This document shows positions 42,439 through 58,502 of a DNA stretch of 64,000 nucleotides, in pieces. Source of the DNA: a virus. Lineage: Duplodnaviria; Heunggongvirae; Uroviricota; Caudoviricetes. The notes beneath the pieces are model-generated. The model saw only the letters and a program-made list of their open reading frames with translations, was not told the origin of the DNA and did not search any database. Numbering within the stretch: position 1 is the stretch's first letter; the number at the start of each line of letters is the position of its first letter. The translations under genes and the position numbers were made by a program. Where the stretch lies: the IMG/VR virus record IMGVR_UViG_3300013105_000002, positions 64,001-128,000 of that record, one strand, 5' to 3'.

Positions 42439-42446
42439 CACAAATT

Positions 42447-42653: not shown

Positions 42654-42684
42654 TTTAACTTAATATAAGGGCTTCGGCCCAAAT

Positions 42685-42767: not shown

Positions 42768-42773
42768 CCCAAA

Positions 42774-42811: not shown

Positions 42812-42832
42812 CTATACCCAAAGGAGGATGAC

Positions 42833-43318: not shown

Positions 43319-43326
43319 GAGTAAGA

Positions 43327-43599
43327 ATGCACAAGACAATTCTATGCAGTTGCGGAAAGCAGATTTCTACCTGTAGGTGTCCAAGTCCAAACAAGACAAT
43401 CGTGGTGTCTGACCAGCCCTGTACTCATGTCAAGACAGAGGTTCAGCCAAGTTCAGAAGAGGTGTACGCAAAGTATGCTGATATCTTTGGAGTCCCTTCT
43501 TGGCTTTTCAAGGAAGTGATTGCCAAGTACAACGAGGAAATCCTTCAGGCACTGGTGACAGAGGCCAGAGACAAGAGCAGGAGCCTTCGTGGAGAGTAG
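43327..43599 (+). CDS. Hypothetical protein
   Basis: 90 aa, CSCG...CRC. Confidence 0.6.
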   Translation: MHKTILCSCGKQISTCRCPSPNKTIVVSDQPCTHVKTEVQPSSEEVYAKYADIFGVPSWLFKEVIAKYNEEILQALVTEARDKSRSLRGE

Positions 43600-43858
43600 A
43601 AACCAAGAAGTTTTCAGAGTGCACGGCGACGTTCCGACGACTGTCACCATTGAATTCAACATTCAGCCGGGGCAGAGTGACAGGGACACCCTTCTCAATG
43701 CCAAGGACTACCTTGAATACTACCTCAACAGTGGTAATCACAAGTCATGGGGTAGAAAGATCAGTATTAAGGGTGTCATGGCAAGGGTCAGATCGTCTAA
43801 GGAGCGGCGCGGCAGTGAAACGAAACCAGTCGTCTCAGATGTTGCACGCCGAGAGTGA
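43589..43858 (+). CDS. Hypothetical protein
   Basis: 89-aa ORF. Confidence 0.6.
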   Translation: MESRNQEVFRVHGDVPTTVTIEFNIQPGQSDRDTLLNAKDYLEYYLNSGNHKSWGRKISIKGVMARVRSSKERRGSETKPVVSDVARRE

Positions 43859-43870
43859 GTATGCTACACT
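43842..43870 (+). promoter_or_regulatory. Sigma70-type promoter
   Basis: TTGCAC-N17-TACACT. Confidence 0.6.
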
Positions 43871-43914
43871 AGTTTTATTCCGGCGCGGATTCGATGAGTT
43901 TCCGCCCCGGTCAT

Positions 43915-43986
43915 GCCGATTAAGTGTTAATGGATGCACGGGCGATTGAAGATCATCAAGTGGGGGATCGTTACCCTCAATCGGCA
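43915..43986 (+). tRNA. tRNA-Phe(GAA)
   Basis: GCCGATT/AATCGGC, loop TT GAA GA (one anticodon-stem mismatch), GGATCGTTACC T arm. Confidence 0.75.
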
Positions 43987-43987
43987 C

Positions 43988-44064
43988 TGGGGTGTATTGG
44001 CGCTGGCTACGAACCAGTAGTGCATAACGGACTGAAAATGAGGGTTCGAATCCCTTCTCCCCAA
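43988..44064 (+). tRNA. Non-canonical tRNA-Arg(ACG): no D arm, D-loop-like motif in variable region
   Basis: TGGGGTG/CTCCCCA (one mismatch), 7-nt linker, GCTGG-CT ACG AA-CCAGT, 21-nt insert containing TAACGGAC, GAGGG-TTCGAAT-CCCTT. Confidence 0.65.
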
Positions 44065-44111
44065 CGCGATTGACGCACATTGATGTGCTATGAAGTTGAG
44101 TAGGAAATACA

Positions 44112-44456
44112 TTGAAGGCAAAAGTTACTGGCCTAATGGCCACCTTCCTGCTGCTCTTTGCAGCGTTGACCATCGCCCCCGCACAGGGTGCGGCGGCAGC
44201 GACGACAGGAAACAAGTTCTGTCAGACAAGTGGCAGTTCAACCGACGCCGTTATTCAGGCGTGGTGGGAGAACGGCACAAAGCAGAATGTCGGCTGGTAC
44301 AAGTGCAGCCCGACAGGTGTAAATGGATTTATTGTTCCTAATGGATTCTACTGTCAGTCACAGTGGGGGTACACCTACAATGGCGATTGGTTCGGTAGGC
44401 TTTACAGGTTCACCACGAACAACAATTACCTGTACCTGACTTGTCGTCACGCCTGA
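44112..44456 (+). CDS. Secreted Cys-containing protein (paralog of 47362-47838)
   Basis: Sec-type signal peptide ending AQG/AAA; F.V..G..C.S.WGY.Y motif. Confidence 0.7.
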   Translation: MKAKVTGLMATFLLLFAALTIAPAQGAAAATTGNKFCQTSGSSTDAVIQAWWENGTKQNVGWYKCSPTGVNGFIVPNGFYCQSQWGYTYNGDWFGRLYRFTTNNNYLYLTCRHA

Positions 44457-44482
44457 TAAAACAGGCAAGGTATAATAGTGGT

Positions 44483-44626
44483 ATGGAAGAGTACACATTC
44501 ACCGTATGCCTCACTGTTAAGGTAGAGGCGTTTGACAAGTCCGATGCTACGGACATTTTGCATGACACTTTCGACCCCGGCAGCGACTGCGGAGTGGAAA
44601 TCGTAAATCTTGATATCAAGGAGTAA
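44483..44626 (+). CDS. Small hypothetical protein
   Basis: 47 aa, downstream of a TATAAT. Confidence 0.5.
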   Translation: MEEYTFTVCLTVKVEAFDKSDATDILHDTFDPGSDCGVEIVNLDIKE

Positions 44627-44627
44627 C

Positions 44628-44837
44628 GTGAGTAACATTGACCAGATTATCATGATCTGTGGTATTCAGGCCGCATGCAAGGGTAACGAAGCAGTGGGAG
44701 AAGTCGAATTTGAAGTGTCCGATGAGGATACGGAACCGTTCGATATCAAGATTCCCTGCTGCTCAGAATGCCTCAACTTCTTGAATCCGGGCGGTACGTA
44801 CAGTATTGACAGCACGTCAGACGGTGTGGTAGACTGA
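44628..44837 (+). CDS. Cys-rich hypothetical protein
   Basis: 69 aa, AAGGAG RBS. Confidence 0.55.
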   Translation: MSNIDQIIMICGIQAACKGNEAVGEVEFEVSDEDTEPFDIKIPCCSECLNFLNPGGTYSIDSTSDGVVD

Positions 44838-44849
44838 AGTACACACTTT

Positions 44850-44921
44850 GGGGGTGTGGCCTGACAGGGAAGCAACTGCTTTGCAAGCAGTCATATGTGG
44901 GTTCGAATCCCATCACCTCCA
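44850..44921 (+). tRNA. tRNA-Ala(TGC) copy 1
   Basis: GGGGGTG/CACCTCC (G3:U70), ACTGC-TT TGC AA-GCAGT. Confidence 0.92.
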
Positions 44922-44986
44922 CGTCGTTGAATCACATGAGGCTAGTGTGATGAGGCCGTCCTGAGCAAGACGTTAAACTACTGAAT

Positions 44987-45058
44987 GGGAGCGTAGTGTC
45001 AACGGTAACACACTTGTTTTGCAAGCAAGCATTGAGGGTTCGAATCCCTCCGCATCCA
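44987..45058 (+). tRNA. tRNA-Ala(TGC) copy 2
   Basis: GGGAGCG/CGCATCC (G3:U70, A4xA69 mismatch), CTTGT-TT TGC AA-GCAAG. Confidence 0.85.
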
Positions 45059-45120
45059 CAAAGGGTAGCGGCATACCTCCTAGAAATAGGTAACTGATTT
45101 CCAGTTAGTAAAAGCCGTAT

Positions 45121-45195
45121 GATCCGGTCGCACAGTCTGGCAGTGCATGGCACTCTTAATGCCCGAGAACGTGGGTTCGAATCCCACCCGGATCA
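45121..45195 (+). tRNA. tRNA-Lys(CTT) copy 1
   Basis: GATCCGG/CCGGATC, GGCA-CT CTT AA-TGCC, T arm. Confidence 0.85.
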
Positions 45196-45319
45196 CAAAA
45201 GTGCTAATATCTAGATGATAAACCTGCTAAGCACTAACGGCACGACCAGACTCCTAACAGGATGGAGGCGAGGCATCATGGCGGCGGTATACCGTGGGAT
45301 CATGGTCTGACTGGTCAAT

Positions 45320-45393
45320 GGGTGTATAGTTCAGTTGGTTAGAACAGCAGACTCTTAATCTGCGTGTCGGGGGTTCAAGTCCCTCTACACCCA
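45320..45393 (+). tRNA. tRNA-Lys(CTT) copy 2
   Basis: GGGTGTA/TACACCC, GCAGA-CT CTT AA-TCTGC. Confidence 0.95.
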
Positions 45394-45394
45394 C

Positions 45395-45595
45395 ATGAGC
45401 GGTATGGGAGAGTCACTAGTAATTCAAGAGGACGTTTTCGCCAGCAGCGATTTGCGTCACCTCTCTTGGACTGACAGCAATGGCGTTACCCGTTTCTACG
45501 AGATTGTGTCTGATATGGCAGATGACGTAGAGTACGGTGTTGACAAGATTGCTACGGCAATTGGTGATATCGGCTACCAGACTTCTCATCAATGA
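45395..45595 (+). CDS. Hypothetical protein
   Basis: 66-aa ORF filling the gap between tRNAs. Confidence 0.5.
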   Translation: MSGMGESLVIQEDVFASSDLRHLSWTDSNGVTRFYEIVSDMADDVEYGVDKIATAIGDIGYQTSHQ

Positions 45596-45679
45596 ATCGG
45601 TGCCAGAGCATGGTCGATTGGGTCGGACTTTTAATCCGTTGCAGAAATGCCATCGTGGGTTCGAATCCCACCCGATTCT
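45594..45679 (+). tRNA. tRNA with Lys(TTT) anticodon and long variable arm
   Basis: GAATCGG/CCGATTC, CGGA-CT TTT AA-TCCG, variable hairpin GCA-GAAA-TGC, U73. Confidence 0.85.
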
Positions 45680-45684
45680 CAATG

Positions 45685-45712
45685 TGCTACCCTTGACGGG
45701 GTAGCATTTTTT
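45685..45712 (+). terminator. Rho-independent terminator
   Basis: TGCTACCC-TTGACG-GGGTAGCA followed by six T. Confidence 0.8.
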
Positions 45713-45724
45713 ATGGAGGGAAAT

Positions 45725-46015
45725 ATGACAATCGCTATTAATGAAGAACAGTCGAAGACAATGAGCAAGTACGAGGCCACAGTAACGCCACAGGGCAAGG
45801 ACGTGTGGTCAGTCAAGGTTGAGGAGGTCCGCTATTTTACAGTGGACCCAGACACCGTGTATAGTCGTAGCATGGTGTTCCAGAGGGACAACTTCGTGGG
45901 CACCGAGGAAGAGGTCAAAGCATTGGCCTCAGACAAGATCAAGGATTTGGTCTCAGACAGGGACGCAATCAACACCAAGAAGACATTTACCATTACGGAG
46001 GACGACTGTGTTTGA
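45725..46015 (+). CDS. Hypothetical protein
   Basis: 96 aa, GGAGG RBS. Confidence 0.65.
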   Translation: MTIAINEEQSKTMSKYEATVTPQGKDVWSVKVEEVRYFTVDPDTVYSRSMVFQRDNFVGTEEEVKALASDKIKDLVSDRDAINTKKTFTITEDDCV

Positions 46016-46172
46016 CAACCAGCGCGGTAGGGAGTGGGCAGCATTCAATATCAAGAATGCCGATCACTTCATCGAGAAGAACGAGAACAAGATCAAATTG
46101 TTGCAGAGAGTCGCCCAGTTCGTGGTGACAGTTACTGGTCTTGCACTCATCAGGAAGAGGATGAAGCGTTGA
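46008..46172 (+). CDS. Small hypothetical protein
   Basis: 54 aa, GGAGG RBS. Confidence 0.55.
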   Translation: MFDNQRGREWAAFNIKNADHFIEKNENKIKLLQRVAQFVVTVTGLALIRKRMKR

Positions 46173-46345
46173 CCCTTGGACTGCTCTTGACAGTCATCTT
46201 CTTCGTGTGTAAGATGGGTGCTGTTGGTGGCTTCGCTGCATGGTCATGGTGGCTGGTGTTCACGCCGCTCATCATCGAGTTTGTGGTAGACTTGCTACTG
46301 CTGATCTTCTGGGGAAGTGTCCTCAGATCAATCTTTAATCGTTAA
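46169..46345 (+). CDS. Small two-TM membrane protein
   Basis: LLLTVIFFVCK...WSWWLVFTPL, 58 aa. Confidence 0.7.
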   Translation: MTLGLLLTVIFFVCKMGAVGGFAAWSWWLVFTPLIIEFVVDLLLLIFWGSVLRSIFNR

Positions 46346-46363
46346 ACGTAAGGGAGAGAGCGA

Positions 46364-46723
46364 ATGCTTTTCATTCTGTATATTACTGGCGTCATCGCCA
46401 TGGCAGTGCCCAACCTTTACCGGGCTCATCTGCATTACAAGGAATGGCAAGGCATTCGCTCTTTCCATTCCTTCCTGCGGGAAAACAGAGAGCACATGTA
46501 CAATGGCTGGTACGACCGTGATGAACTGCGGTGGGCCGGTGAGTCTGCGAAGAGGGATATGACGAACTCTTTGATGTTTGCGTTCATGTCTCTATTTTGG
46601 CATGGTGTGCTCTTTGGGCACCTTACCGTAAAGGGCTTTACGTGGCTTCGAAACAAGAATAGCAGCATGGCTCCCAAGAGCCAGATCGACCACGCGGCAA
46701 TCCGAGAGCAGGAGGGTTTCTAA
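46364..46723 (+). CDS. Membrane protein
   Basis: 119 aa, two hydrophobic segments. Confidence 0.65.
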   Translation: MLFILYITGVIAMAVPNLYRAHLHYKEWQGIRSFHSFLRENREHMYNGWYDRDELRWAGESAKRDMTNSLMFAFMSLFWHGVLFGHLTVKGFTWLRNKNSSMAPKSQIDHAAIREQEGF

Positions 46724-47061
46724 TGTACATTGCTGGACCACTCGCTGCATACTTCACCGTCGCTCTAGTCATTTTCTGGATTCAGGGAATGGCTCACATA
46801 AATGATTACAACCGCTCTGTTGCCCGGTCCTACAGTTCTTGGAAAGAATCGAAGCGGTGGAACGATGGTGATTTGCGTGGTGCTAAGCGTGAGCGCAGCA
46901 ATGCAATCGATCTGGTAAAGAATGTGATGTTCTGGGCTCGGTGCCTCGTGTGGCCTTTGGTCATCCCAACATACCTAGTCATATGGATCGCAAAGTTCTT
47001 CATGCTATGCTTCGAAATTTACAATTCCATTCGTAGGCCCCAAGGCTATGATCAGGCATGA
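46723..47061 (+). CDS. Membrane protein
   Basis: 112 aa, same two-TM layout as the previous gene. Confidence 0.65.
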   Translation: MYIAGPLAAYFTVALVIFWIQGMAHINDYNRSVARSYSSWKESKRWNDGDLRGAKRERSNAIDLVKNVMFWARCLVWPLVIPTYLVIWIAKFFMLCFEIYNSIRRPQGYDQA

Positions 47062-47365
47062 CAGTTCCATGAAGCCGATGAGTCAGGAGCAGGCAAGCGA
47101 GGTTTATGATATCCTCGTTGAGCACTGCGGTGCGCCAGAGAGTTGGCGTGACAATTTCATGTATCATCAGACAGCAAGCGTGTGTGAAGAATACCGCTTT
47201 CAAGGTTGTCTGGGATTCGGCGGCAAGTTCCGTCGATACAATCGCGGCAGCGGTCTAGAACGCTGGTATGTTGACCAGTATCACGAAGACACGACTGACC
47301 GCTCCAAGAAAGTGATTGAAACGGCAAACGATCTGCTTGCCGATCTTAGAAAAGAGTACGAATGA
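47048..47365 (+). CDS. Hypothetical protein
   Basis: 105 aa, EYRFQG.LGFGGKF motif. Confidence 0.7.
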   Translation: MIRHDSSMKPMSQEQASEVYDILVEHCGAPESWRDNFMYHQTASVCEEYRFQGCLGFGGKFRRYNRGSGLERWYVDQYHEDTTDRSKKVIETANDLLADLRKEYE

Positions 47366-47838
47366 ACAAGATCAGAATGGCGATTGCATCGCTGTTTGCA
47401 GCAATGCTGCTTGTCCTGAGTGGTGTGTCCGCTCAGGCAGCGACCGACAATCTTGGTTGTCACTCCTATGGTGGACGAGTTTACAATGATCCGTCGAGCC
47501 GACTTCTTCCACGCATTTATGCAGATGGCCCCGGTACGGGCTGTCCAGCCTATTACAATCTTGGCAAGGGCCAGTGGTCGAACAACTATTACAACTTCCG
47601 TGACGTAGATGCTTTCTACGTTGGACCCGGCTACCGTTGTGTCTCCCCATGGGGCTACATCTATTACGGCAACGTCAACGGAACGTGGTTCTGGCTTGTA
47701 AATGACAGTGTAGTCCTGTCGCTTTACTGCACCCCAGTTCCTGCTGGTTCGTCCCCTGCTGGTGACGGCCCAAGTGGCGGTGAAGTCATCAATGGCGATG
47801 AATCAGAGGCCCTGCCCGGATTGGCACCACCAGCCTGA
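47362..47838 (+). CDS. Secreted Cys-containing protein (paralog of 44112-44456)
   Basis: Signal peptide ending AQA; AFYVGPGYRCVSPWGYIY motif; Pro/Gly tail. Confidence 0.7.
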   Translation: MNKIRMAIASLFAAMLLVLSGVSAQAATDNLGCHSYGGRVYNDPSSRLLPRIYADGPGTGCPAYYNLGKGQWSNNYYNFRDVDAFYVGPGYRCVSPWGYIYYGNVNGTWFWLVNDSVVLSLYCTPVPAGSSPAGDGPSGGEVINGDESEALPGLAPPA

Positions 47839-47841
47839 CGC

Positions 47842-47870
47842 TTGACAGGTGCCCACCGACCTGCTAAACT
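47842..47870 (+). promoter_or_regulatory. Sigma70-type promoter
   Basis: TTGACA-N17-TAAACT; CCACC/GGTGG straddles the -10. Confidence 0.7.
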
Positions 47871-47878
47871 GGTGGAAT

Positions 47879-47961
47879 GCTCCGATAGCGCCGAGGTCTT
47901 CTAAGCCTTCCAGTATAATCAGCGTAACGGACGGATGGGGGTTCGAATCCCTCTCGGAGCG
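47879..47961 (+). tRNA. Non-canonical tRNA-Arg(TCT): no D arm, D-loop-like hairpin in variable region
   Basis: Perfect GCTCCGA/TCGGAGC acceptor, 7-nt linker, GAGGT-CT TCT AA-GCCTT, insert with CGT-AACGG-ACG, GGGGG-TTCGAAT-CCCTC. Confidence 0.7.
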
Positions 47962-47962
47962 C

Positions 47963-48034
47963 CGTGGTGTAGTTCAGTGGCAGAATAGTTCCCTCATAAG
48001 GAAAAGGCCGGTGGTTCGAATCCACCCATCACGA
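47963..48034 (+). tRNA. tRNA(CAT), elongator Met or Ile2
   Basis: CGTGGTG/CATCACG with paired 1:72, TTCC-CT CAT AA-GGAA. Confidence 0.85.
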
Positions 48035-48036
48035 CT

Positions 48037-48122
48037 AGCGGAGTAGAGCAGTTCGGAGTGCTCGCTAGGCTCATAACCTAGAGGTCGCAATTTAAGAGGT
48101 TCAAATCCCGCCTCCGCCACCA
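48037..48122 (+). tRNA. Initiator-like tRNA-fMet(CAT) with an 8-nt T-stem insertion
   Basis: A1xC72 mismatch, TAGAGCAG..GCTCG D arm, CTAGG-CT CAT AA-CCTAG, extra AATTTAAG in the T stem, encoded CCA. Confidence 0.75.
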
Positions 48123-48130
48123 ATTGAATA

Positions 48131-48439
48131 ATGCGGTACAATGGATACATGAATGTTATCCGATCCCTATGGGCGTCAGTTCAGGGCGACCCTGTGTTCA
48201 TGAGAAAGTTGAATGGGCACCTGACGCTACATTGGATTTGCCACTTTCCTGTGGTAATCTTTCTGTACTTCGCATTTCCTCAAACGTGGGACAAGATTTC
48301 TATTCTATATCTTGCACTAGTTAGCATCTATGCAAACGTCGCTGGTCACCTAGCGGCATGGCAGGCTTCTCGTGTTGAGGTTAGACAAGAGGAAATTGCC
48401 ACAGATTCAGAGCCTACACGTCTCAATTCTGGTGATTAA
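48131..48439 (+). CDS. Membrane protein
   Basis: 102 aa, two TM segments. Confidence 0.6.
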   Translation: MRYNGYMNVIRSLWASVQGDPVFMRKLNGHLTLHWICHFPVVIFLYFAFPQTWDKISILYLALVSIYANVAGHLAAWQASRVEVRQEEIATDSEPTRLNSGD

Positions 48440-48464
48440 ACGCATACCATGCTACACTGTTAGT

Positions 48465-48881
48465 ATGGTTGGATTCAGACAGAGACTCAGAAAGATTTTG
48501 AACGCACGCTACAGCGTGTCCGCGTGGCTGTGGATTTTGGTGTCCACCGCCACTGCAATTGTTATGTTCATTCTGATCGCTAGCGGAGAAGGCGCTACGC
48601 CGGGACTACGAGAATTTCTATCCGTGCTTCCCGTCAATGGGTATTTCTGGTCTGGCGGTTTGATCATCACTGGCATTACAAAGATTTATGGAATGGCAAC
48701 AGGGAAGGAACGCGCCGTTGTCTACGGATCATTCTTTGCCTTCTGTCTCTGGGTGTTTGGAGCCATTGCATTCCTTCTATCTGGAAATGCAGTCAGCGTC
48801 ATCTTGTTGATTCTGCCATTTATGATCTTCAACGCCTTCCTCTTCCTAGGTGCACTACTTAGGGAAGAGTCACAACTTTAA
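48465..48881 (+). CDS. Four-TM membrane protein
   Basis: 138 aa, strongly hydrophobic. Confidence 0.7.
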   Translation: MVGFRQRLRKILNARYSVSAWLWILVSTATAIVMFILIASGEGATPGLREFLSVLPVNGYFWSGGLIITGITKIYGMATGKERAVVYGSFFAFCLWVFGAIAFLLSGNAVSVILLILPFMIFNAFLFLGALLREESQL

Positions 48882-48882
48882 C

Positions 48883-48911
48883 TTGACCGCCAGTTGGTGA
48901 GGTGCTAGACT
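48883..48911 (+). promoter_or_regulatory. Sigma70-type promoter
   Basis: TTGACC-N17-TAGACT. Confidence 0.65.
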
Positions 48912-48955
48912 CAACCTGTAAGACCCTCCACAGAGTCTTAGAGTCAGGAGTCACA

Positions 48956-49147
48956 GTGAATCCACGAGCATTTGCTGCCCCTCCCGAGTACGAAGTTCGG
49001 GGGAACAAGCACGTACTAATTCTGCACATGTATCACTGGTGTGCACACCCGCGTTTCGGCTCGTCCAAGCACGAGTTTGAGTTCGACACCGAGAAGGATG
49101 CGCTAGAGCGCATGAAGCGTCTCGGTTACATCATCACTAAGGACTAG
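48956..49147 (+). CDS. Hypothetical protein
   Basis: 63 aa, GTG start after AGGAG. Confidence 0.55.
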   Translation: MNPRAFAAPPEYEVRGNKHVLILHMYHWCAHPRFGSSKHEFEFDTEKDALERMKRLGYIITKD

Positions 49148-49148
49148 T

Positions 49149-49703
49149 ATGGACCGAGAGGTTCCTTGGGAGGAAATTACCATGGAGAACGTAAAGATCG
49201 ACTGGCGCAATGGGCGTATCACGGGCGGTGTCCGTATGGCATCCACCAGTGGCTGGATCGACATTCCGCTTCTGTCTCACGTTGAGGGAAATCTCTATCA
49301 GGGTGGATGCAAGCAGGGCTACGCTCTGGATGACGATTTCGTCAAGGTCGTCTCTCTGTACCCGTGGGAGCGTTACGAGATTGCTGACGGCACTGACCGT
49401 GTTGAAATCCGCATGTACGACAGCCACGACGGTGTGCTAGAGGAAGACCTTTTCCGAGCGTCCGATGAGGTTCTGGCCGGTCTGGAAAAGGGCAAGACCC
49501 TTGTCCACTGTCAGGCTGGACTCAACCGCTCTGGACTTGTTACGGCATTTACCCTGATGCGTCAGGGTATGTCCGCGCAGGACGCCATCGACAAGTTGCG
49601 TCGTGGGCGCGACCAGTTGGTTCTGTGCAACCAGACTTTTGTCAAGCAACTGCACGACTTGGAGCGCCGTCGCTCTGAATGGGAGGGTGATACTCATGAG
49701 TAG
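49149..49703 (+). CDS. Dual-specificity / tyrosine phosphatase family protein
   Basis: LVHCQAGLNRS (CX5R) motif, MYDS acid loop, N..F..QL. Confidence 0.9.
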   Translation: MDREVPWEEITMENVKIDWRNGRITGGVRMASTSGWIDIPLLSHVEGNLYQGGCKQGYALDDDFVKVVSLYPWERYEIADGTDRVEIRMYDSHDGVLEEDLFRASDEVLAGLEKGKTLVHCQAGLNRSGLVTAFTLMRQGMSAQDAIDKLRRGRDQLVLCNQTFVKQLHDLERRRSEWEGDTHE

Positions 49704-49729
49704 GTAAGTAACTACAATAAGGAGGAAAT

Positions 49730-50137
49730 ATGTGCAGCAATTGTTTCGATGGAAAGGGATGGCCCGACCACCGAGAACGTAACGCTTACCGTCCAGAAGA
49801 CGAGGAAGACCCACGTTACGCACACTCACCTCGCAAGAGGTCAAAGAGAGAAAAGGTTCGTACCAAGGGCTGCCCAGAGAACGACAACAAGGCTCACGTT
49901 TACGAGATTGTTGAAGTGATCGAGTGGGGCCAGAAGTATAAGCGAACCGACGAGGGTGTTCGCTATGTTTGGGCTCCTGAAAGCAAGTGGAAGCGTATGT
50001 GCGTTGGCTGCGGCCACGTCCACAACGTTTATTACTGGTGGAGCAGGAGAACATCGCCGGTAGGTAGAGCCTTCAATGAAAGCGATGTCTACGAAGTGAT
50101 CGACAAGACAAACGTAAAGCCTTTTTGGATGACATGA
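49730..50137 (+). CDS. Hypothetical protein
   Basis: 135 aa, AAGGAGG RBS. Confidence 0.65.
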   Translation: MCSNCFDGKGWPDHRERNAYRPEDEEDPRYAHSPRKRSKREKVRTKGCPENDNKAHVYEIVEVIEWGQKYKRTDEGVRYVWAPESKWKRMCVGCGHVHNVYYWWSRRTSPVGRAFNESDVYEVIDKTNVKPFWMT

Positions 50138-50571
50138 TGTATAATGGGTTCATGGCTGTCATGAACATAATCCAAAGGACGATTAATACACACGTCACCC
50201 CTTTGGGATATCTGTTTGCAGTTTGGCAAACCGTATTCGGAGTTAACCATCTGCTGCTGGATGACAAGGGTGGCGCAAGAACTGTGCTGTCAGAAATCGA
50301 TCCCCTTATGCCAACGGAGATTTGGGGATTGATTCTGGTAGTAGCATCTGTTAGTTTGATCATCGGCATGCTGTGTGAGAAAACCTCAGTCGTGCAAGTA
50401 TCTGCTTTTGCAGGGTTTGCGCTCTGGGTCATGGCTATGCTATCGTATGTGCTGAACGGATTCATTTGGCTTCACGCACCGAGCGCGGCGCTTCAAGCGA
50501 TGATGTTTGGCTATTTCTTTCTCGCGGCTGGTATCAACCAGTTGTGGGACTACGCACCAGAAAGGTACTAA
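50125..50571 (+). CDS. Four-TM membrane protein
   Basis: 148 aa, hydrophobic; layout similar to 48465-48881. Confidence 0.65.
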   Translation: MDDMMYNGFMAVMNIIQRTINTHVTPLGYLFAVWQTVFGVNHLLLDDKGGARTVLSEIDPLMPTEIWGLILVVASVSLIIGMLCEKTSVVQVSAFAGFALWVMAMLSYVLNGFIWLHAPSAALQAMMFGYFFLAAGINQLWDYAPERY

Positions 50572-50636
50572 TGAACACGGAGTTCAATTCTACGTGACTC
50601 TTTCCAACTGTTAAAGTTGGAAAGGAGGACACAAAG

Positions 50637-50816
50637 ATGGCTGGTCCTTGCAGTATGCCTTCGGGCGACCGCGAAGAATATGAATTTCTTCGCACCATGC
50701 GTTGCGATGCTCACGGAGAGCATTGCTACGGTGGACAGCGAAACTGCGTCATGGTAACATGGCGTGAGTGGCTGCTGAAGCGTAACCGTCTCAGGACGGG
50801 GAAATCACGGGCTTGA
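50637..50816 (+). CDS. Small hypothetical protein (absent from ORF track)
   Basis: 59 aa, AAGGAGG RBS. Confidence 0.55.
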   Translation: MAGPCSMPSGDREEYEFLRTMRCDAHGEHCYGGQRNCVMVTWREWLLKRNRLRTGKSRA

Positions 50817-50842
50817 CGGCCCGGTGATCGATGTGCTAGACT
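50813..50842 (+). promoter_or_regulatory. Sigma70-type promoter
   Basis: TTGACG-N18-TAGACT. Confidence 0.7.
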
Positions 50843-50941
50843 GAGTACATAATAAATCAGCGAGTTGCTTGGCCTCATAGCCTCTCGTGTAGACATAACG
50901 AGGTCCGTTTCGGGTAGAGTTCGGTTAAACTACCCAACCAT

Positions 50942-51025
50942 GGGCGTGCGCCAACGTTGGAGAGTTGGGGGAGGCTGTAACCCTCTTGCACTGCGTCTGA
51001 GTAGGTTCGAATCCTATCACGCTCA
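50942..51025 (+). tRNA. tRNA-Tyr(GTA)
   Basis: GGGCGTG/CACGCTC, GGAGG-CT GTA AC-CCTCT, long variable arm. Confidence 0.9.
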
Positions 51026-51046
51026 CGCAATAACTAAATAATCTAT

Positions 51047-51124
51047 CGTGGTGTGGTGTGAATTGGCTAGCCGTTCGCCTGCAAAGCGAAGTAAATGCGG
51101 GTTCAAGTCCCGTCACCACGTCCA
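51047..51124 (+). tRNA. tRNA-Cys(GCA)
   Basis: CGTGGTG/CACCACG, TTCGC-CT GCA AA-GCGAA, U73 and encoded CCA. Confidence 0.92.
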
Positions 51125-51179
51125 TTAAAATCTACCGGGTTCGACAAACGCCGGTACTCAAATGAAAGAGAGAAAAACA

Positions 51180-52043
51180 ATGTCACTACAAATTGGAAAC
51201 AAGACGGATCGCTTTTCTATTAATCGTGTCGCTGAAACCGTTCATCTGGGTATGTATCCAGATAACACCCCTGTTGTTGATCTAGAGACTGTCTGGAACT
51301 TCAATGCCAGTCATAACGACACATTCATGATTAGCCGTCCGGAATCACTACACGAGTTCGTTACGCATATGTTCGTAGCGGACTCTTTTGCTGAGAGGGG
51401 CAATCCGATTCGGAGCCTTGTCCTTCCTCGTGTCCCCGGTGCCCGACAGGATCGCATCAAGTGGGAAGGCGACTGGCTCTTTACTCTAAAGAGCGTTGCC
51501 AAGATGGTCAATGAGAGAAACTTCCAGAATGTTGTCACTCTTGATCCTCACTCTCTGGCCACCACCGCCCTGATCGACAGGCTCGTGGTCCCAGAAATTC
51601 GCCTGCGCCACTGCATGGAGACGGCTGGTGTTCACGTCAAGGACTACGCTGGCATTATTGCGCCCGATCTTGGGGCTCAGAAGCGTGCTCAGGAGGCTGC
51701 TGCACACTTCGAACTGCCGGTGTTTCAGGCTGGCAAGACTCGTGACCCGCACACCAACAAGTTGAGCGGCTTCCACTTCTTCGATCACCTCATCCCTGAT
51801 TCCCACTACCTCGTGGTGGACGATCTGTGTGACGCGGGCGGCACGTTCATCGGACTTGCAGAAGAGGCTCACAAGGTATATGGTGTGACTCTCGACCTGT
51901 TCGTCACGCACGGACTTTTCACCAAGGGCACTGCAACCCTTTTGCAGCACTACAACAACCTCATTTCCACCGACTCTGTTGAAATCAACGACCCTCGCGT
52001 CATCACGCTAAAGGTCACGGAAGGACTGACAAACTATGCATGA
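51180..52043 (+). CDS. Ribose-phosphate pyrophosphokinase-like protein (candidate Adps of NARP1)
   Basis: P..PGARQDR, LDPHS, IAPDLGA, VVDDLCDAGGTF and FVTHGLF motifs. Confidence 0.9.
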   Translation: MSLQIGNKTDRFSINRVAETVHLGMYPDNTPVVDLETVWNFNASHNDTFMISRPESLHEFVTHMFVADSFAERGNPIRSLVLPRVPGARQDRIKWEGDWLFTLKSVAKMVNERNFQNVVTLDPHSLATTALIDRLVVPEIRLRHCMETAGVHVKDYAGIIAPDLGAQKRAQEAAAHFELPVFQAGKTRDPHTNKLSGFHFFDHLIPDSHYLVVDDLCDAGGTFIGLAEEAHKVYGVTLDLFVTHGLFTKGTATLLQHYNNLISTDSVEINDPRVITLKVTEGLTNYA

Positions 52044-53514
52044 TATGCTGAATGTTATCACTCTCTGCGATGGTTACAAGGTTGACCACCGCCGCCAGTA
52101 CCCCGCAGGAACGGAGTTTGTCTACTCCAACTGGACCCCGCGCGGTAGCCGAATCGATGGTATCGATCACGTGGTGAACGTCGGTCTTCAGTATTTCCTA
52201 AAGGAATACCTTCAGGACCAGTTTGATGACTTCTTCGATGAAGACGTTGACTTCGTGTGTGCTGAGTACGAGCGTCGTATGAACACGTACCTCGGCCCGA
52301 ATGAGATTGGTTCTGATCACATTCGTGCGCTTCACGAACTGGGCTACCTGCCTCTAGAGTTCAAGTCTCTTCCTGAGGGCGCTCTCGTTCCGCTCCGTGT
52401 TCCGATGTTCACGGTCGAGAACACGCACCCGGACTTCTTCTGGCTGGTCAACTACATTGAGACTCTTATGTCCAATGTTCTGTGGATGCCCATGACCAGC
52501 GCCACCATCGCCAAGCGTATGCGCGGTCTGCTGGAAGAGTATGCTGCAAAGACGGGATCGCCTGCTGAGTTCGTGGACTGGCAGGGTCACGACTTCTCGA
52601 TGCGTGGTATGGCCGGTGTTGAGTCGGCTGCCCTTTCGGGCATTGGTCACCTAACCCAGTTCACGGGTACGGACACCATTCCTGCAATTGAAGCCGTGGA
52701 GAAGTTCTACGTTAGCAACGCCGAGGAATACCTCATTGGTGGCTCTGTCGCTGCTACCGAGCACTCTGTGATGTGTGCCGGTGGTGAGGATGACGAGCAG
52801 GAGACCTACGAGCGTCTTATCAACCTTTACCCGAGCGGTATCCTTTCGGTTGTTTCTGACACGTGGGACTTGTGGAAGGTCATCACCGAGACGCTGCCTG
52901 CCCTAAAGGACAAGATCATGGCGCGTGACGGTAAGTTGGTTATTCGTCCTGACTCTGGTGATCCTGCTGATATCCTTTGTGGTATCAAGGGCTCGTACCG
53001 TTCGCCTGAGGATCGCACTCCTGAGGAAAAGGGTGTCGTTGAACTCCTTTGGGAGATTTTCGGCGGCACCGAGACCGAAACCGGTCACAAGTTGCTCGAC
53101 TCTCACATTGGTGTTATCTACGGAGACAGCATCAACTACGAGCGTGCTAAGGACATTCTAGAGCGTCTTGACGCCAAGGGCTTTGCTTCGGCAAATGTCG
53201 TCTTCGGTATGGGTTCCTTCGGTTACCAGTACCAGACTCGTGACACTTTCGGGTTCGCCATGAAGGCCACCAACGTCACCATCAACGGTGTGGAAAAGCC
53301 GATCTTCAAGAACCCCAAGACCGACAACGGTCTAAAGAAGTCGCTACGTGGTCGCATCGCTGTGTTGAAGAACATGGAGACTGGTGACTACTACGCTGTG
53401 GACGACGCTTCTGAGTGGGCTCTACAGAGGTCCGAGTTGACAACCGTCTGGAAGGACGGTATCTTCCACTCAGTGACCCCATTCCGAGAGGTCCGAGAGA
53501 ACGCGAGGGCATGA
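52036..53514 (+). CDS. Nicotinamide phosphoribosyltransferase-like protein (candidate Namat of NARP1)
   Basis: DGYKVDH..QYP, HDFSMRG, ATEHSVM, SVVSDT, VIRPDSGDP, IYGDSI and KKS..G motifs. Confidence 0.93.
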   Translation: MHDMLNVITLCDGYKVDHRRQYPAGTEFVYSNWTPRGSRIDGIDHVVNVGLQYFLKEYLQDQFDDFFDEDVDFVCAEYERRMNTYLGPNEIGSDHIRALHELGYLPLEFKSLPEGALVPLRVPMFTVENTHPDFFWLVNYIETLMSNVLWMPMTSATIAKRMRGLLEEYAAKTGSPAEFVDWQGHDFSMRGMAGVESAALSGIGHLTQFTGTDTIPAIEAVEKFYVSNAEEYLIGGSVAATEHSVMCAGGEDDEQETYERLINLYPSGILSVVSDTWDLWKVITETLPALKDKIMARDGKLVIRPDSGDPADILCGIKGSYRSPEDRTPEEKGVVELLWEIFGGTETETGHKLLDSHIGVIYGDSINYERAKDILERLDAKGFASANVVFGMGSFGYQYQTRDTFGFAMKATNVTINGVEKPIFKNPKTDNGLKKSLRGRIAVLKNMETGDYYAVDDASEWALQRSELTTVWKDGIFHSVTPFREVRENARA

Positions 53515-54260
53515 TGACCGCAGTTGCAGTGGCTCCACGAGTTGGGCCGAAGAATGACATTCTGGTGAGTCTGGTGGTGGCTGTTGTTGCCACCGGCCTC
53601 TCCTACCTGATCGGCATGGGAGCGGGATGGATCGATAGCGTCAATCTCCTAGAGGCTGCTGCCGTCTTTACCTCTTACTCCTGCACGTACCTGTGCGTCA
53701 AGGAACGCCGCATCAACTACCCCATCGGTGCCCTGAGCACGGCTCTGTACTGCATCCTTTTTGTTCAGAGTGGTCTGCTGGCATCGGCGGTGCTGAACGG
53801 TTACCTGACACTCAGCCTAATTTACGGCTGGTTCCGCTGGCGTTCCGACGCTGCGACTCGCCCTGTCTCTAGGGTTGAAATCAAGTGGGTTCCGGTGTAC
53901 CTTATGGCTACAGGCGCGGCGTATGCAGGTGCTCTTGGTCTGAACACCCACTTTGGTGGATCGTTCGCATGGACCGACACGGTTATCCTTGTTCTGACCA
54001 TTCTGGCTCAGTTCCTTCTGGATAACAAGAAGTTGGAGAACTGGGCGGTATGGGCTGTGGTCAACGTGTTTGCCATCTACACCTACTTCACCGCTGGCCT
54101 GTTCATCGTTGGTGTCCAGTACATCTTCTTCCTTGCCAACACGCTCTACGGGTGGTATGTTTGGAACCAGAGTCGCAAGGCAGGCATTGAGCCGGTGCAA
54201 CCCGCAGCGGTTCAGCCAATCGAAATGCATCCCGGCTGGGATCATCTAAACAAGGAGTAA
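53511..54260 (+). CDS. pnuC: Nicotinamide riboside transporter PnuC
   Basis: Multi-TM protein; YGWFRW, K.LENW.VWAVVN and YGWYVW motifs. Confidence 0.9.
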   Translation: MMTAVAVAPRVGPKNDILVSLVVAVVATGLSYLIGMGAGWIDSVNLLEAAAVFTSYSCTYLCVKERRINYPIGALSTALYCILFVQSGLLASAVLNGYLTLSLIYGWFRWRSDAATRPVSRVEIKWVPVYLMATGAAYAGALGLNTHFGGSFAWTDTVILVLTILAQFLLDNKKLENWAVWAVVNVFAIYTYFTAGLFIVGVQYIFFLANTLYGWYVWNQSRKAGIEPVQPAAVQPIEMHPGWDHLNKE

Positions 54261-54264
54261 ACTC

Positions 54265-55308
54265 ATGACGGTCTGGGTACTTTTGACAGCAATGCCAGTC
54301 ACCAAGGGTCACAAGGCACTGATTCAGTTCGCTGATCAGTACGCCGGGACAATTGGGACAAAGAGCACGGTGGTCGTTTGTACCCAGCCGTCTGAGCCAT
54401 TTCCACTTCATCGTATTCAGGCAGTTGTGGAAATTGCTGACGCACTTCCCAACACCCGCGTCAACAGCGTCTACCATGAAATGGAGCAGAACGCTGACGC
54501 TCCCGGCTTTTGGGACATGTGGCGAGGCATTCTGAACGGCAAGGGTGCAAAGCCCGGAGACACCTACATTGCCTCTGAGGTCTATGGCAAGCGTCTGGCC
54601 GATGAAATGAATGGCAAGTTCATGCCGTACGATCCTGAGCGTTCCATTATGCCAATCAAGGCCACCAAGGTGCGCGAGGATGTTTACGACATGTGGTCGG
54701 CAATTGCTCCTGAGTTTGCCAAGCACCTCACCCGACGCATTACAATCTTCGGCGCGGAGAGCACCGGAAAGACAACGCTGGCCAAGCGTCTCTCGGCAGT
54801 TACAGACTCATACTTTGTTCCAGAGTATGCCCGTCCGTACCTAGAGAACACTGTCAATGAGATTACGGTCTCTTCGATGACAGATATCTGGAAGGGTCAG
54901 TCGGCGTTGCAGCAGTCGGCACAAATGTGGGAGCCGCATCAGTTCATCATTCAAGACACTGACCTGTTCTCCACGGTAGGCTACTGGGAATTCCCGCACT
55001 GGCAGGACACCATCGGAGCACCGCCCAAGGGTCTTGTCGCTGATGCTATTCGCCAGAAGTCAGACCTTTACCTGATCACCAAGAGCAATATCCCATTTGA
55101 GGCAGACCCGCTCCGGTATGGTGGCGATGTGCGCGAGGGTAGCGATGAATACTGGGTCAACGTGTGTGAGAAGTACAGTCTAAACTACATTGTTCTCGAC
55201 GCGGAGGGCTTGAACAGGAGGGCATCTGAGGCACTTCCTCTGATCTTTAATAACTTCGAAGCGTATTCCGAGCCTCTGAGGGCATACGAGAGGAAGCACA
55301 ATGGCTGA
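54265..55308 (+). CDS. nadR: NadR-type NMN adenylyltransferase / ribosylnicotinamide kinase
   Basis: N-terminal P.TKGH (HxGH-like), ASEVYG, I.ATKVR; C-terminal GAESTGKTT, PEYAR, DTD and D.LRYG motifs. Confidence 0.9.
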   Translation: MTVWVLLTAMPVTKGHKALIQFADQYAGTIGTKSTVVVCTQPSEPFPLHRIQAVVEIADALPNTRVNSVYHEMEQNADAPGFWDMWRGILNGKGAKPGDTYIASEVYGKRLADEMNGKFMPYDPERSIMPIKATKVREDVYDMWSAIAPEFAKHLTRRITIFGAESTGKTTLAKRLSAVTDSYFVPEYARPYLENTVNEITVSSMTDIWKGQSALQQSAQMWEPHQFIIQDTDLFSTVGYWEFPHWQDTIGAPPKGLVADAIRQKSDLYLITKSNIPFEADPLRYGGDVREGSDEYWVNVCEKYSLNYIVLDAEGLNRRASEALPLIFNNFEAYSEPLRAYERKHNG

Positions 55309-55489
55309 CCATAAAGGATTTATCAGCGGCTTCTCTACCTATCATGTTGACATGACTCAGGAGGACTATGATACAGTGCAGTCAATCATGCGCAAGTACG
55401 TACCGGCTGAGGAAGACATGGCATATCTAGACCTGAGGTTGGACGGCTGGTGGACACGATTCCAGATTGCCAACGTTAAGGAGATTTGA
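55301..55489 (+). CDS. Hypothetical protein
   Basis: 62 aa. Confidence 0.55.
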   Translation: MADHKGFISGFSTYHVDMTQEDYDTVQSIMRKYVPAEEDMAYLDLRLDGWWTRFQIANVKEI

Positions 55490-55740
55490 TGGAGGTAGGG
55501 TTCAAAGTAGGTGACAGGGTTAAGGTGGTTCGAAACTGCAACCGCTATATGCCTCTACCGCCCGGTACTTTGGGTAAAGAAGGCAGGATCGTAGGCTCCT
55601 TGACACCCATGTCATGCCGTGTTAAGATCGCCTATGGTGAGGAAGTCTGGGTCGAGTTCAGAGAGATTGAACTTGTAAAGGCTTCTACAGAAAAGCCGGT
55701 AGCGAAAAGCGCACCGACTAAGAGGAAGAGGAAATCATGA
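55486..55740 (+). CDS. KOW/SH3-like small protein
   Basis: FKVGDRVKV...G.EG.IV motif. Confidence 0.55.
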   Translation: MMEVGFKVGDRVKVVRNCNRYMPLPPGTLGKEGRIVGSLTPMSCRVKIAYGEEVWVEFREIELVKASTEKPVAKSAPTKRKRKS

Positions 55741-56891
55741 CAAGCCTAGACGAGATTCTAGACACAGAACTGCTTGCAAGGCATATCGAAGACGGAAACG
55801 TCTCTGCCCGCACACATGAGAAGTTTCCTTGGGAAATCTTCAACTACACGCCAAAGGCTCAGTTCGCTCGTGCATGGGACGACGTAACCCTCGCATGTCG
55901 TGGACTTGTCTGGAACTACGAGACAAACACCGTTCTGGCTCGCCCCTTCCCCAAGTTCTTCAATTGGGACGAGGGTGTGATTCAGTACCCTCCCATCGGT
56001 CATACCCTGCGCATGGAGAAGATGGACGGATCGCTGGGTATTCTCGTAACCGATGACTACTGCAACGGCACTCCAACTAAGGAATGGATTTCCACTCGTG
56101 GGTCATTCCATTCAGAGCAGGCCGAGTGGGCAACCAAGTTCTACCTAGAGACAGTGGCAGAGTCTGCAAACAACCTGCCTCCCGAAATGGTGTTTTCGCC
56201 ACTACAGGGTAAGACCTACCTGTTCGAAATCATCTACCCGGAGAACAGAATTGTCGTTGACTACGGTGACTACAAGGGCCTAGTGCTGCTTGACGTTATC
56301 GACAACGAGACCGGCAATTCTGATGTTCAGGAGTTCGACAAGGCTGAGTGGCCTGACAAGGTTAAGCGAATCCTCGCCAACTTTGACTCAGGTGACACCG
56401 CTGCAATTCCCGATGGTGACGAGGGATTCGTGTACCTTTGGACGAGTCGTAAGGATAGGGACGGAAACGACCTTCCTGACTTCCGTACGAAGATGAAGTC
56501 TCCGGACTACATCGCGTTGCACCGATTGGTGACTGGACTTTCTGAAAAGACTGTCTGGGAGCACATGGTGAAGGGCGGTGCGCTTCAAGACCTGAAGCGT
56601 GAATTGCCTGAAGAGTTCCACGAGTTCATCGACAATGCTGGAAAGAAGTTCTTGAAGGAGGCTTCTCAGATTGTTTCGACGGTGTACTCTGCCATCGACA
56701 CTCTGGAAAGCACAGTTCTTCACGAGCGTCTGGACATGGTTGACAGAAAGACCGCAGCCGTGGCCATACAAAAGCATTTCCCTGCTCTGGCAAAGTACAT
56801 GTTCCTCGTACTTGACGGCAGGCCGATCCATCCTGTAGCGTTGCTCTCAGTCAAGCCTCGTAAGGAGGCACCGCTAGTAACGGAGGTGTAA
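55737..56891 (+). CDS. T4 Rnl1-like RNA ligase
   Basis: CRGL, RPFPKFFN, EKMDGSLG, STRGSF, FEII.PENRIVV, EGFV and KMKSPDY..LH motifs. Confidence 0.92.
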   Translation: MTSLDEILDTELLARHIEDGNVSARTHEKFPWEIFNYTPKAQFARAWDDVTLACRGLVWNYETNTVLARPFPKFFNWDEGVIQYPPIGHTLRMEKMDGSLGILVTDDYCNGTPTKEWISTRGSFHSEQAEWATKFYLETVAESANNLPPEMVFSPLQGKTYLFEIIYPENRIVVDYGDYKGLVLLDVIDNETGNSDVQEFDKAEWPDKVKRILANFDSGDTAAIPDGDEGFVYLWTSRKDRDGNDLPDFRTKMKSPDYIALHRLVTGLSEKTVWEHMVKGGALQDLKRELPEEFHEFIDNAGKKFLKEASQIVSTVYSAIDTLESTVLHERLDMVDRKTAAVAIQKHFPALAKYMFLVLDGRPIHPVALLSVKPRKEAPLVTEV

Positions 56892-56893: not shown

Positions 56894-57112
56894 ATGAGCC
56901 GACCTCAGCGCTCTCGCACACGTGTTCGACCCCTTCGGCTGTCACCAGCCGAAGCAAATCGTGGGCTCTGCCCATCCAACAAGCGTGCGTACCAGTCGTT
57001 GGAGTCGGCTCTTGGTGCACTTCAGAACATGAAGGGGGCAGGCAGGGATATTTCTGCCTCACGCGCATATCCCTGCCCGCTCTGCAACCACTACCACACG
57101 TCGAGCAAGTGA
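56894..57112 (+). CDS. Small zinc-binding hypothetical protein
   Basis: K.AY...A...RAYPCPLCNHYHT. Confidence 0.65.
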   Translation: MSRPQRSRTRVRPLRLSPAEANRGLCPSNKRAYQSLESALGALQNMKGAGRDISASRAYPCPLCNHYHTSSK

Positions 57113-57606
57113 TGGAGACCGCCATCATCGTGGAGCCTGCGGTTCCCTCAGAATTCGTTGTCCGCAACAATGCGTCCTCGCGTCAGAAGATGCTCCGTCT
57201 GCTTTTTGAGCGAGACGGCAGGAACTGTCGCTACTGCGATTGTGTTCTCACCCTGAAGAATGGTACCATCGAGCACCTTACCCCGCAGAGCCGAGGCGGT
57301 AGCAACAGGATCACCAACCTTGCAGTCTCGTGTGAGCGCTGCAACAGCGACAAGAGCAGCATGACGGACGAAGAGTACAAGGCTTACCTCCGTGGAGAAT
57401 ACGGAAAGCACTGCAAGTTTTGTGGTAAGGGCCTACGTACTCTGGACTATGACTTCTGCTCTGGTCACGAGAAGAGGGCGCGGTGGATCGCTAGACGAGA
57501 GCCCATGTTCTATGCTATGCTCATGTCCATCGAAGACCCGAGCATGCGCCGCATGATCCTCAATGATATGCCGCGTGGCCGAGTCCCAATCACAGACTAC
57601 ATTTAG
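57109..57606 (+). CDS. HNH endonuclease
   Basis: RDGRNCRYC...TIEHL.P.SRGG.N...NL..SC..CN..K motif. Confidence 0.9.
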   Translation: MMETAIIVEPAVPSEFVVRNNASSRQKMLRLLFERDGRNCRYCDCVLTLKNGTIEHLTPQSRGGSNRITNLAVSCERCNSDKSSMTDEEYKAYLRGEYGKHCKFCGKGLRTLDYDFCSGHEKRARWIARREPMFYAMLMSIEDPSMRRMILNDMPRGRVPITDYI

Positions 57607-57614: not shown

Positions 57615-58502
57615 ATGACCGTTTTCATCACCGTTGGTGCGCCTGCCAGTGGCAAGTCCACGTGGGCTATCGAGTACGCCAATGAGTTCGGAAACACGAT
57701 GATCACGTGCCGTGACGACATTCGCGCTACCTATGGCATCACCAAGTTCGGTGACAAGGAAACTGAGCAGTTCCTGACAGACGTTCAGCGTGCCCAGATG
57801 GAGGGTGCATTTGCTGCCGGAATGGACGTTATCGTTGCAGACACCAACATCAACAGGCGTTTCCGTAATCAGTTGGTCAAGTTCGCTCATGAGCACGCTC
57901 AGGACGTTGAACTGGTCACCTTCTACGAGCCTCTTGACGTTCTCATCATGAGGGATGCGGCGCGTGAGCGTACGGTCGGTGCTGATGTTATCACGAAGTT
58001 CTACAACGACCTCAACAGTCAGGAAATCATTGATATCCTGCTGCCGCACCCTCGTGCTCTGAAGTACAAGCACAACGAGGCAAGCCCCGAGGCAATTGTC
58101 GTTGACATTGACGGCACTGTTGCTGACCACAAGGGGGTTCGCTCTCCATACGACGAGTCGAAGGTCGGCCTTGACAACCCGAAGTACGATGTTATCAGCG
58201 TTGTCAAGGCTCTTGCCGAGCGTTTCGCCGTCATCTTTGTTTCGGGTCGCAAGGACTCGTGCGAGGCTGAGACGCGTGCGTGGATCGAGAAGCACTTCGA
58301 TTTCACGAATGGTGACTACTTCCTGCACATGAGGAAGCACGGTGACGATCGTCCTGATTACCGAATCAAGGCTGATCTGTATGACCAGAAGGTTATCCCC
58401 AACTGGAACATCAGAATGGTCTTTGACGACCGCGATCAGGTTGTTCGTCACGTTCGCAAGCGCGGTATCACCGTTGCTCAGGTTGCACCGGGCCACTTCT
58501 GA
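57615..58502 (+). CDS. Polynucleotide 5'-kinase / 3'-phosphatase (T4 Pnkp/PseT-like)
   Basis: GAPASGKST, RDDIR, VADTN, DIDGT, SGR and FDDRDQVV motifs. Confidence 0.93.
   Translation: MTVFITVGAPASGKSTWAIEYANEFGNTMITCRDDIRATYGITKFGDKETEQFLTDVQRAQMEGAFAAGMDVIVADTNINRRFRNQLVKFAHEHAQDVELVTFYEPLDVLIMRDAARERTVGADVITKFYNDLNSQEIIDILLPHPRALKYKHNEASPEAIVVDIDGTVADHKGVRSPYDESKVGLDNPKYDVISVVKALAERFAVIFVSGRKDSCEAETRAWIEKHFDFTNGDYFLHMRKHGDDRPDYRIKADLYDQKVIPNWNIRMVFDDRDQVVRHVRKRGITVAQVAPGHF

Follow-up and report, generated by a model that had tools for sequence, protein, structure and literature searches.

NARP3, described by Yan et al. (Sci Adv, August 2026; PMC13464706), consists of a PnuC-family transporter and a NadR enzyme that lacks a helix-turn-helix (HTH) domain. 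It was characterized in the T5-like Escherichia phage TrudiRoth (structures 9X6F/9X6H), in which the transporter is Bas30_87 and the enzyme is Bas30_86. Bas30_87 binds nicotinamide riboside (NR), and Bas30_86 converts NR to nicotinamide mononucleotide (NMN) and then to nicotinamide adenine dinucleotide (NAD+). The pair fully restores NAD+, rescues T7 and lambda 10^3- to 10^4-fold from Sir2-HerA, and also overcomes DSR1 (PMC13464706). Phage NadR genes had previously been reported to adjoin PnuC in most cases and to constitute, possibly, another NAD+ route (Osterman et al., 2024 preprint). A PnuC–NadR pair of this kind is found in a 64,000-nucleotide stretch of viral DNA (hereafter the window), positions 64,001 to 128,000 of IMG/VR record IMGVR_UViG_3300013105_000002. 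The record is a complete Caudoviricetes genome of 131,350 bp with direct terminal repeats, of which the window is the second half.

In the window, the pair directly follows two genes that resemble a second described system, NARP1. In NARP1, Adps turns ADP-ribose into ADP-ribose pyrophosphate (ADPR-PP), and Namat joins ADPR-PP with nicotinamide to form NAD+ (Osterman et al. 2024; PMC12774641; PMC13586617). In a host deleted for both pncC and nadR, the Adps–Namat pair of Bas63 is sufficient to restore NAD+ (Osterman et al. 2024). Recent work shows that NARP1 is unable to use ADP-ribose 1-phosphate (ADPR-1P), the product of aRES, or the NMN and AMP released by Metis MisA.

With a probability of roughly 0.7, PnuC–NadR of the window is a distant phage member of NARP3 placed beside NARP1, such that import and recycling routes to NAD+ would be available to the same phage. 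PnuC would admit NR to the infected cell, the kinase domain of NadR would phosphorylate NR to NMN, and the adenylyltransferase domain would join NMN with AMP from ATP to yield NAD+. The neighboring Adps–Namat pair would rebuild NAD+ from ADP-ribose and nicotinamide. One string of genes would thereby provide both routes, most likely sustaining NAD+ when host defenses destroy it. The NR substrate, both NadR activities, and the anti-defense role are attributed by homology to Bas30_86/87, the Haemophilus influenzae and Lactococcus lactis NadR enzymes, and the Neisseria mucosa PnuC. An import-based route beside a recycling route had been proposed in a first-pass annotation of the window; all four gene identities hold, and the proposal is consistent with the sequence evidence and the literature. 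According to the same annotation, the route was not known to have been shown to be anti-defense, a statement that is out of date given the demonstration for Bas30_86/87 as NARP3 (PMC13464706) and the 2024 proposal of Osterman et al.

The NadR protein is assigned to phrog_3462 (E 1.7e-52) and harbors an NMN adenylyltransferase (NMNAT) domain at approximately residues 1–145 and a ribosylnicotinamide kinase (RNK) domain at approximately residues 150–330, the latter containing a PF13521 match at residues 158–319. NadR of the E. coli type has an HTH domain. The window gene has an open frame of 352 codons for a protein of 347 residues, leaving only five in-frame codons before the ATG and therefore no room for an HTH. 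The motifs T13-x-G15-H16, K132-A-T134-x-x-R137, G163-AESTGK169-T (Walker A), and D231-T-D233 are kept across 40 homologues; KATxxR occupies the position of ISxTxxR, and DTD corresponds to Walker B. Sequence matches in the PDB are restricted to NadR proteins (8X7F, 9X6F, 6GYE, and 1LW7), of which 9X6F is presumably the structure of Bas30_86. An AlphaFold2 model built with 40 homologues has a predicted local distance difference test (pLDDT) score of 92.9. The eight PDB entries that match the model best are without exception NadR proteins, aligned over its full length with template-modeling (TM) scores of 0.62–0.73, whereas the next matches score only 0.3–0.4.

The transporter matches PF04973 over nearly the entire model (E 1.2e-37), phrog_1880, and the NCBIfam equivalog TIGR01528 with 82 bits versus a cut-off of 42. 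It aligns with the N. mucosa PnuC structure 4QTN (E 4.3e-07), and the N-Y, A-Q, WxxWxVVN, and NxxYG motifs are present. Compared with the near relative L004, all four NAD+ genes are under purifying selection, with ratios of nonsynonymous to synonymous substitution rates (dN/dS) of 0.11–0.22 (0.19 for NadR and 0.14 for PnuC).

By the published sequence rules, the two upstream genes are classified as NARP1. The Adps-like protein belongs to phrog_619 (E 1.5e-53) and falls far under the cut-offs of all canonical Prs models (e.g., 73 bits versus 113 for TIGR01251). The ICP1 Adps structures are absent from its PDB sequence matches; its residues were compared by alignment with the ICP1 Adps gene from GenBank. 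Residues R87, H121, D161, K185, D212, D213, C215, D216, and F221 of the biochemically tested ICP1 Adps are conserved, while F18, F92, and F223 (ICP1 numbering) are changed to Y, K, and G, respectively. In the numbering of the window protein, R95, H130, D169, K192, D220, D221, C223, D224, T228, and F229 are in place, such that the catalytic Lys (ICP1 K185) and the C-D-x-x-x-S/T-F PP loop are retained.

The Namat-like protein matches the SPbetaL1 Namat structures 9W5X/9W5W with an E value of 7.5e-163 and human Nampt with approximately 1e-68. It carries the Namat selectivity clamp, R39, F395, and Y399 (the latter two in GSFGYQY), equivalent to R40, F392, and Y396 of SPbetaL1. Among 14 aligned phage homologues, all those with a nearby Adps-like gene have GS[FY]xYQY, and the four without Adps have a Nampt-like GGxLLQ. 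An Adps-like gene also lies within ~1.3 kb on the same strand in nine of nine Namat-type relatives from other loci. Because of the Namat-type adenine clamp and the adjoining Adps, the upstream Nampt-fold enzyme should make NAD+ directly.

The linkage of the two systems was surveyed in related phages and in bacteria. Relatives at 74–93% protein identity carry all four genes in the same order, and the same order is found in Microbacterium phage Cece with small open reading frames (ORFs) interspersed. All 21 related IMG/VR loci have PnuC immediately ahead of NadR. Adps and Namat occur within 10 kb in three of these (once downstream of NadR) and elsewhere in the genome in two more; the 10-kb distance also holds for Cece and for L004 and L005, both near relatives. 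Among 59 bacterial loci, PnuC is followed by NadR in 46 (46 of 56 when scored as PnuC directly upstream of NadR), and neither Adps nor Namat was detected within 5 kb in any of the 59. NARP1 is carried by about 4% of phages overall, compared with five of the 21 IMG/VR records, but these few records are related to one another and come from large genomes. The linked cases are found at three distinct positions in the NadR tree, in two different gene orders. The joining of NARP1 and NARP3 therefore recurs and was observed in phages alone, yet only a minority of the loci have it. A survey of four-gene co-occurrence had been suggested in the first-pass annotation; the arrangement does recur (five of the 21 IMG/VR records), though it is not general.

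In a maximum-likelihood tree of NadR, the window sequence falls in a clade with 99/98 support that contains 9 phage and 16 cellular sequences, the latter almost all from Candidatus Saccharibacteria, while the T5-like NadR sits on a very long branch. The closest cellular pairs are likewise almost all from Candidatus Saccharibacteria (49–54% identity for NadR and 56–63% for PnuC), followed by Actinomycetota, and the closest cultured phages infect Microbacterium. This kinship gives at most a hint of the host lineage or of the gene donor, and the NARP3 of this lineage looks to have been captured from NR salvage operons of the Saccharibacteria or Actinomycetota type.

Several observations weigh against the assignment to NARP3. 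The window NadR shares only ~27% identity with the T5-like enzyme that was tested, and it belongs to a different, long-separated branch. It aligns with TIGR01526 at residues 8–317 but reaches 114 bits, compared with a curated cut-off of 341, and the usual G-x-F before the TxGH motif is replaced by T-A-M throughout its clade. Residues mutated in Bas30_86 were compared via the T5-like NARP3 enzyme Bas27_0092, the numbering of which matches the Bas30_86 residues, in an alignment of ~25% identity. E80, S112, I141, K163, R167, and D275 are identical in the window protein, and K168 is replaced by R. K10, S37, P84, G89, F110, and E230 differ (T, C, A, F, I, and Q, respectively), as do F11 and V139.

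The transporter presents a similar picture. Yan et al. list four NR-coordinating residues for N. mucosa PnuC, which were mapped with a numbering offset of +25 derived from the alignment to 4QTN. Of these, Q196 and N214 are identical in the window protein (Q167 and N185), Y242 is replaced by Phe, and Q124 has no counterpart. Of the essential Bas30_87 residues N45, Q94, and N180, N180 alone is identical (again N185), in an alignment of ~25% identity; the window protein has S55 and L103 where Bas30_87 has the Asn and the Gln. The transporter keeps unchanged a single NR-binding residue out of the three that Bas30_87 needs, and two out of four in the comparison with N. mucosa. These pocket differences are common to the entire clade of the window PnuC, bacterial members included. 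NR is proposed as the substrate because of family membership and the link to NadR, not on the basis of the binding pocket.

A further consideration is that Saccharibacteria and Actinomycetota carry PnuC–NadR as a normal cellular operon, and an anti-defense role is therefore not implied by the genes alone. The pair could instead be a general metabolic helper that boosts NAD+ in an NR-dependent host without de novo synthesis, regardless of defense. Its nearest cellular relatives, the Candidatus Saccharibacteria pairs that share the supported clade with the window, are indeed PnuC–NadR operons in housekeeping surroundings, and a large-phage survey lists pnuC, nadR, and NAMPT clusters as NAD+ synthesis genes with no reference to defense (PMC11662467). 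However, the joined Adps–Namat pair pays off only once cleavage of NAD+ has yielded ADP-ribose and nicotinamide, and the joining was seen in phages alone. In addition, the NAD+-dependent DNA ligase domain (PF01653) was not found in the complete phage genome, which argues against a phage ligase in need of NAD+, and the locus lies between a tRNA array and genes for an RNA ligase and PNKP. Genes of this sort are commonly interpreted as repairing damage by host nucleases. A purely metabolic role is considered unlikely.

Alternatively, the main role of NadR could be to adenylylate NMN that the upstream Nampt-fold enzyme produces, in a NARP2-like fashion with PnuC as an accessory. In vitro, SPbetaL1 Namat does form NMN from phosphoribosyl pyrophosphate (PRPP) and nicotinamide, with roughly half the rate of the human enzyme Nampt (PMC12774641). 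A true Nampt-type gene (GGxLLQ, no Adps) accompanies PnuC–NadR in four related IMG/VR phages (L021, which is the same stretch as L038, and L033, L034, and L035); it stands directly downstream of NadR in one of them (L021:9343-12519) and elsewhere in the others. In those four phages, NadR could be the NMNAT partner of the Nampt-type gene, as a NARP2/NARP3 hybrid. In contrast, the window enzyme has the full Namat clamp and an adjoining Adps with the catalytic Lys and a C-D-x-x-x-T-F PP loop, from which NAD+ is expected without an NMNAT, and PnuC stands beside NadR in every phage locus examined. NARP2-like use as the main function is accordingly improbable; the first-pass suggestion that NadR might supply the NMNAT step to the first pair stands as a possibility, although the step should not be needed.

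The least probable explanation is that the PnuC clade transports something other than NR, be it a further pyridine nucleoside or, as known for other Pnu members, some other vitamin, along a route unlike NARP3. In the window and its clade, two of the three essential and two of the four coordinating residues compared above are non-identical, yet the protein exceeds the TIGR01528 cut-off, and its gene accompanies NadR, with a kinase domain that acts on NR, in all 21 phage loci and in 46 of 56 bacterial loci.

Each of these rival explanations is less well supported than a distant NARP3 joined to NARP1. The gene set is real, intact, and under selection, and it does not represent a new kind of system. 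The inability of NARP1 to use ADPR-1P or NMN and AMP would provide a rationale for a second route, as import together with direct NMN ligation would cover the aRES and Metis cases. A more far-reaching proposal, which is possible though rather doubtful, is that the back-to-back NARP1–NARP3 arrangement is a selected broad-spectrum NAD+ rescue cassette covering cleavage modes that defeat NARP1 alone. Under this proposal, Adps–Namat would deal with canonical cleavage into ADP-ribose plus nicotinamide. NMN from Metis-type NAD+ diphosphatases or from a Namat side activity would be re-ligated by the NMNAT domain of NadR. PnuC–NadR would bring in an external NAD+ supply when the cleavage products are unusable (e.g., ADPR-1P from aRES).

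The four NAD+ genes are on the plus strand and begin after the last tRNA gene of a long array (tRNA-Cys, ending at 51124). Adps-like and Namat-like overlap by 8 nt (52036-52043), the ATG of PnuC overlaps the Namat-like stop codon as ATGA (a 4-nt overlap), and a 4-nt gap on the same strand separates the end of PnuC from the start of NadR, which has a strong ribosome-binding site. PnuC–NadR is probably translationally coupled to the NARP1 pair. The ORFs, junctions, and families are as first annotated, with PnuC and an HTH-less bifunctional NadR following the Nampt-like gene at overlapping or 4-nt spacing. The accompanying notion of a four-gene unit is borne out by the tight junctions but not by any boundary. 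The next ORF overlaps the 3′ end of NadR by 8 nt, and tight packing persists to at least 58502, across two small ORFs and the genes for an RNA ligase, an HNH protein, and PNKP. Because the same packing goes on downstream, the four genes do not make up a transcription unit with limits of its own. A scan for consensus promoters and terminators did not rise above shuffled controls (10 sites versus 8.2 and 13 versus 8.6).

Table 1. Positions of the NAD+ genes and of downstream genes in the window
Feature	Position	Strand	Remarks
Adps-like (PRPP-synthetase fold, ADP-ribose pyrophosphokinase type)	51162..52043	+	293 aa; alternative start 51180
Namat-like (nicotinamide ADP-ribose transferase, Nampt fold)	52036..53514	+	492 aa
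PnuC-family transporter, predicted NR importer	53511..54260	+	249 aa
AAGGAG ribosome-binding site of NadR	54253..54258	+	read from sequence; overlaps PnuC stop codon
HTH-less NadR, NMNAT and RNK domains	54265..55308	+	347 aa
Rnl1-type RNA ligase	55737-56891		same tight gene string as NAD+ genes
HNH endonuclease	57109-57606		same tight gene string as NAD+ genes
Kinase-phosphatase PNKP	57615-58502		same tight gene string as NAD+ genes

The tRNA array upstream of the NAD+ genes comprises 18 genes (40426-51124). Together with the NAD+ genes and the RNA ligase, HNH, and PNKP genes, it looks like a counter-defense and RNA-repair region. The two small ORFs after NadR (55301-55740; 62 and 84 aa) overlap each other by 4 nt and have no Pfam or PHROG match; L004 holds counterparts of 76 and 87 aa at the same place. 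A gene of the dual-specificity-phosphatase fold (49149-49703; PF00782, E 1.4e-14) lies ~1.5 kb upstream of the cassette and has the same relative position in L004. It is distinct from the Macro-type Adpp of NARP1-AP. A Macro/Adpp phosphatase (PF01661) was not found in the complete phage genome, which argues against the NARP1-AP variant. In a megablast search of the four genes against deposited phages, the sole match was 244 bp at 75% identity inside Aeromonas phage Nampt-like genes, and no cultured phage came up as a close relative.

Two relatives show departures from the window arrangement. Between the window (51180-55308) and L004 (2778-7044), Namat and PnuC share 93% protein identity with synonymous divergence (dS) of 0.34–0.49, whereas the flanking Adps and NadR share 80% and 74%, respectively, with dS of 0.72–1.04. 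The uneven divergence suggests that the central block has recombined. In L004, PnuC and NadR are moreover separated by an additional ORF of 47 codons. In a 129-kb ENA contig of a related phage (L006:4645-7041), a gene of the isochorismatase family (PF00857, 199 aa) lies between PnuC and NadR and overlaps both, and there is no Adps or Namat nearby. The isochorismatase family PF00857 includes the nicotinamidase PncA. The three genes appear to form a distinct version of the NR module.

The locus extends NARP3, so far known mainly from phages of Enterobacteriaceae, to a distant phage lineage, and phages repeatedly place it beside NARP1. If the pairing does widen protection to non-canonical NAD+ cleavage, it would help explain why several NAD+ routes are retained by phages, and it would offer a compact cassette for testing defense breadth.

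Among the systems to which the locus can be compared, cellular PnuC–NadR salvage (H. influenzae NadR, 1LW7; L. lactis NadR, 6GYE; N. mucosa PnuC, 4QTN) shares the NadR fold at the TM scores given above, and the Saccharibacteria operons share the PnuC-to-NadR order, the absence of an HTH, and 49–54% identity. In contrast to these, the window genes are phage-borne and linked to Adps–Namat, a linkage that occurs in none of the bacterial loci. NARP2 (Vibrio phage KVP40, Nampt plus NMNAT/Nudix) also combines an NMN adenylyltransferase step with a Nampt-fold enzyme. However, the window enzyme is of the Namat type rather than the PRPP-preferring Nampt type and has an Adps partner, which sets it outside NARP2. 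The NMNAT of the window belongs to NadR, in which it is fused with an NR kinase, and a transporter is present.

The likeness to NARP1 (Bas63, SPbetaL1, and ICP1) extends to both genes, their overlap, the adenine clamp of Namat, and the catalytic and PP-loop residues of Adps. NARP1 has been described as a two-gene operon, or as a three-gene operon with the Macro phosphatase Adpp, whereas in the window PnuC–NadR follows without a gap and the genome has no Macro domain. NARP3 of Bas30 likewise consists of adjoining phage genes for a PnuC-family transporter and an HTH-less NadR with NMNAT and RNK domains. The NadR catalytic motifs are the same, and the pair sits in a tRNA-gene region both here and in T5-like phages. 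The differences are the gene order (PnuC to NadR here, as in bacterial operons, but NadR to PnuC in T5-like phages), the nearest cellular relatives (Saccharibacteria rather than Enterobacteriaceae), and the attachment to NARP1. The parts are already known, and their tight joining as NARP1–NARP3 is the only unusual feature of the locus.

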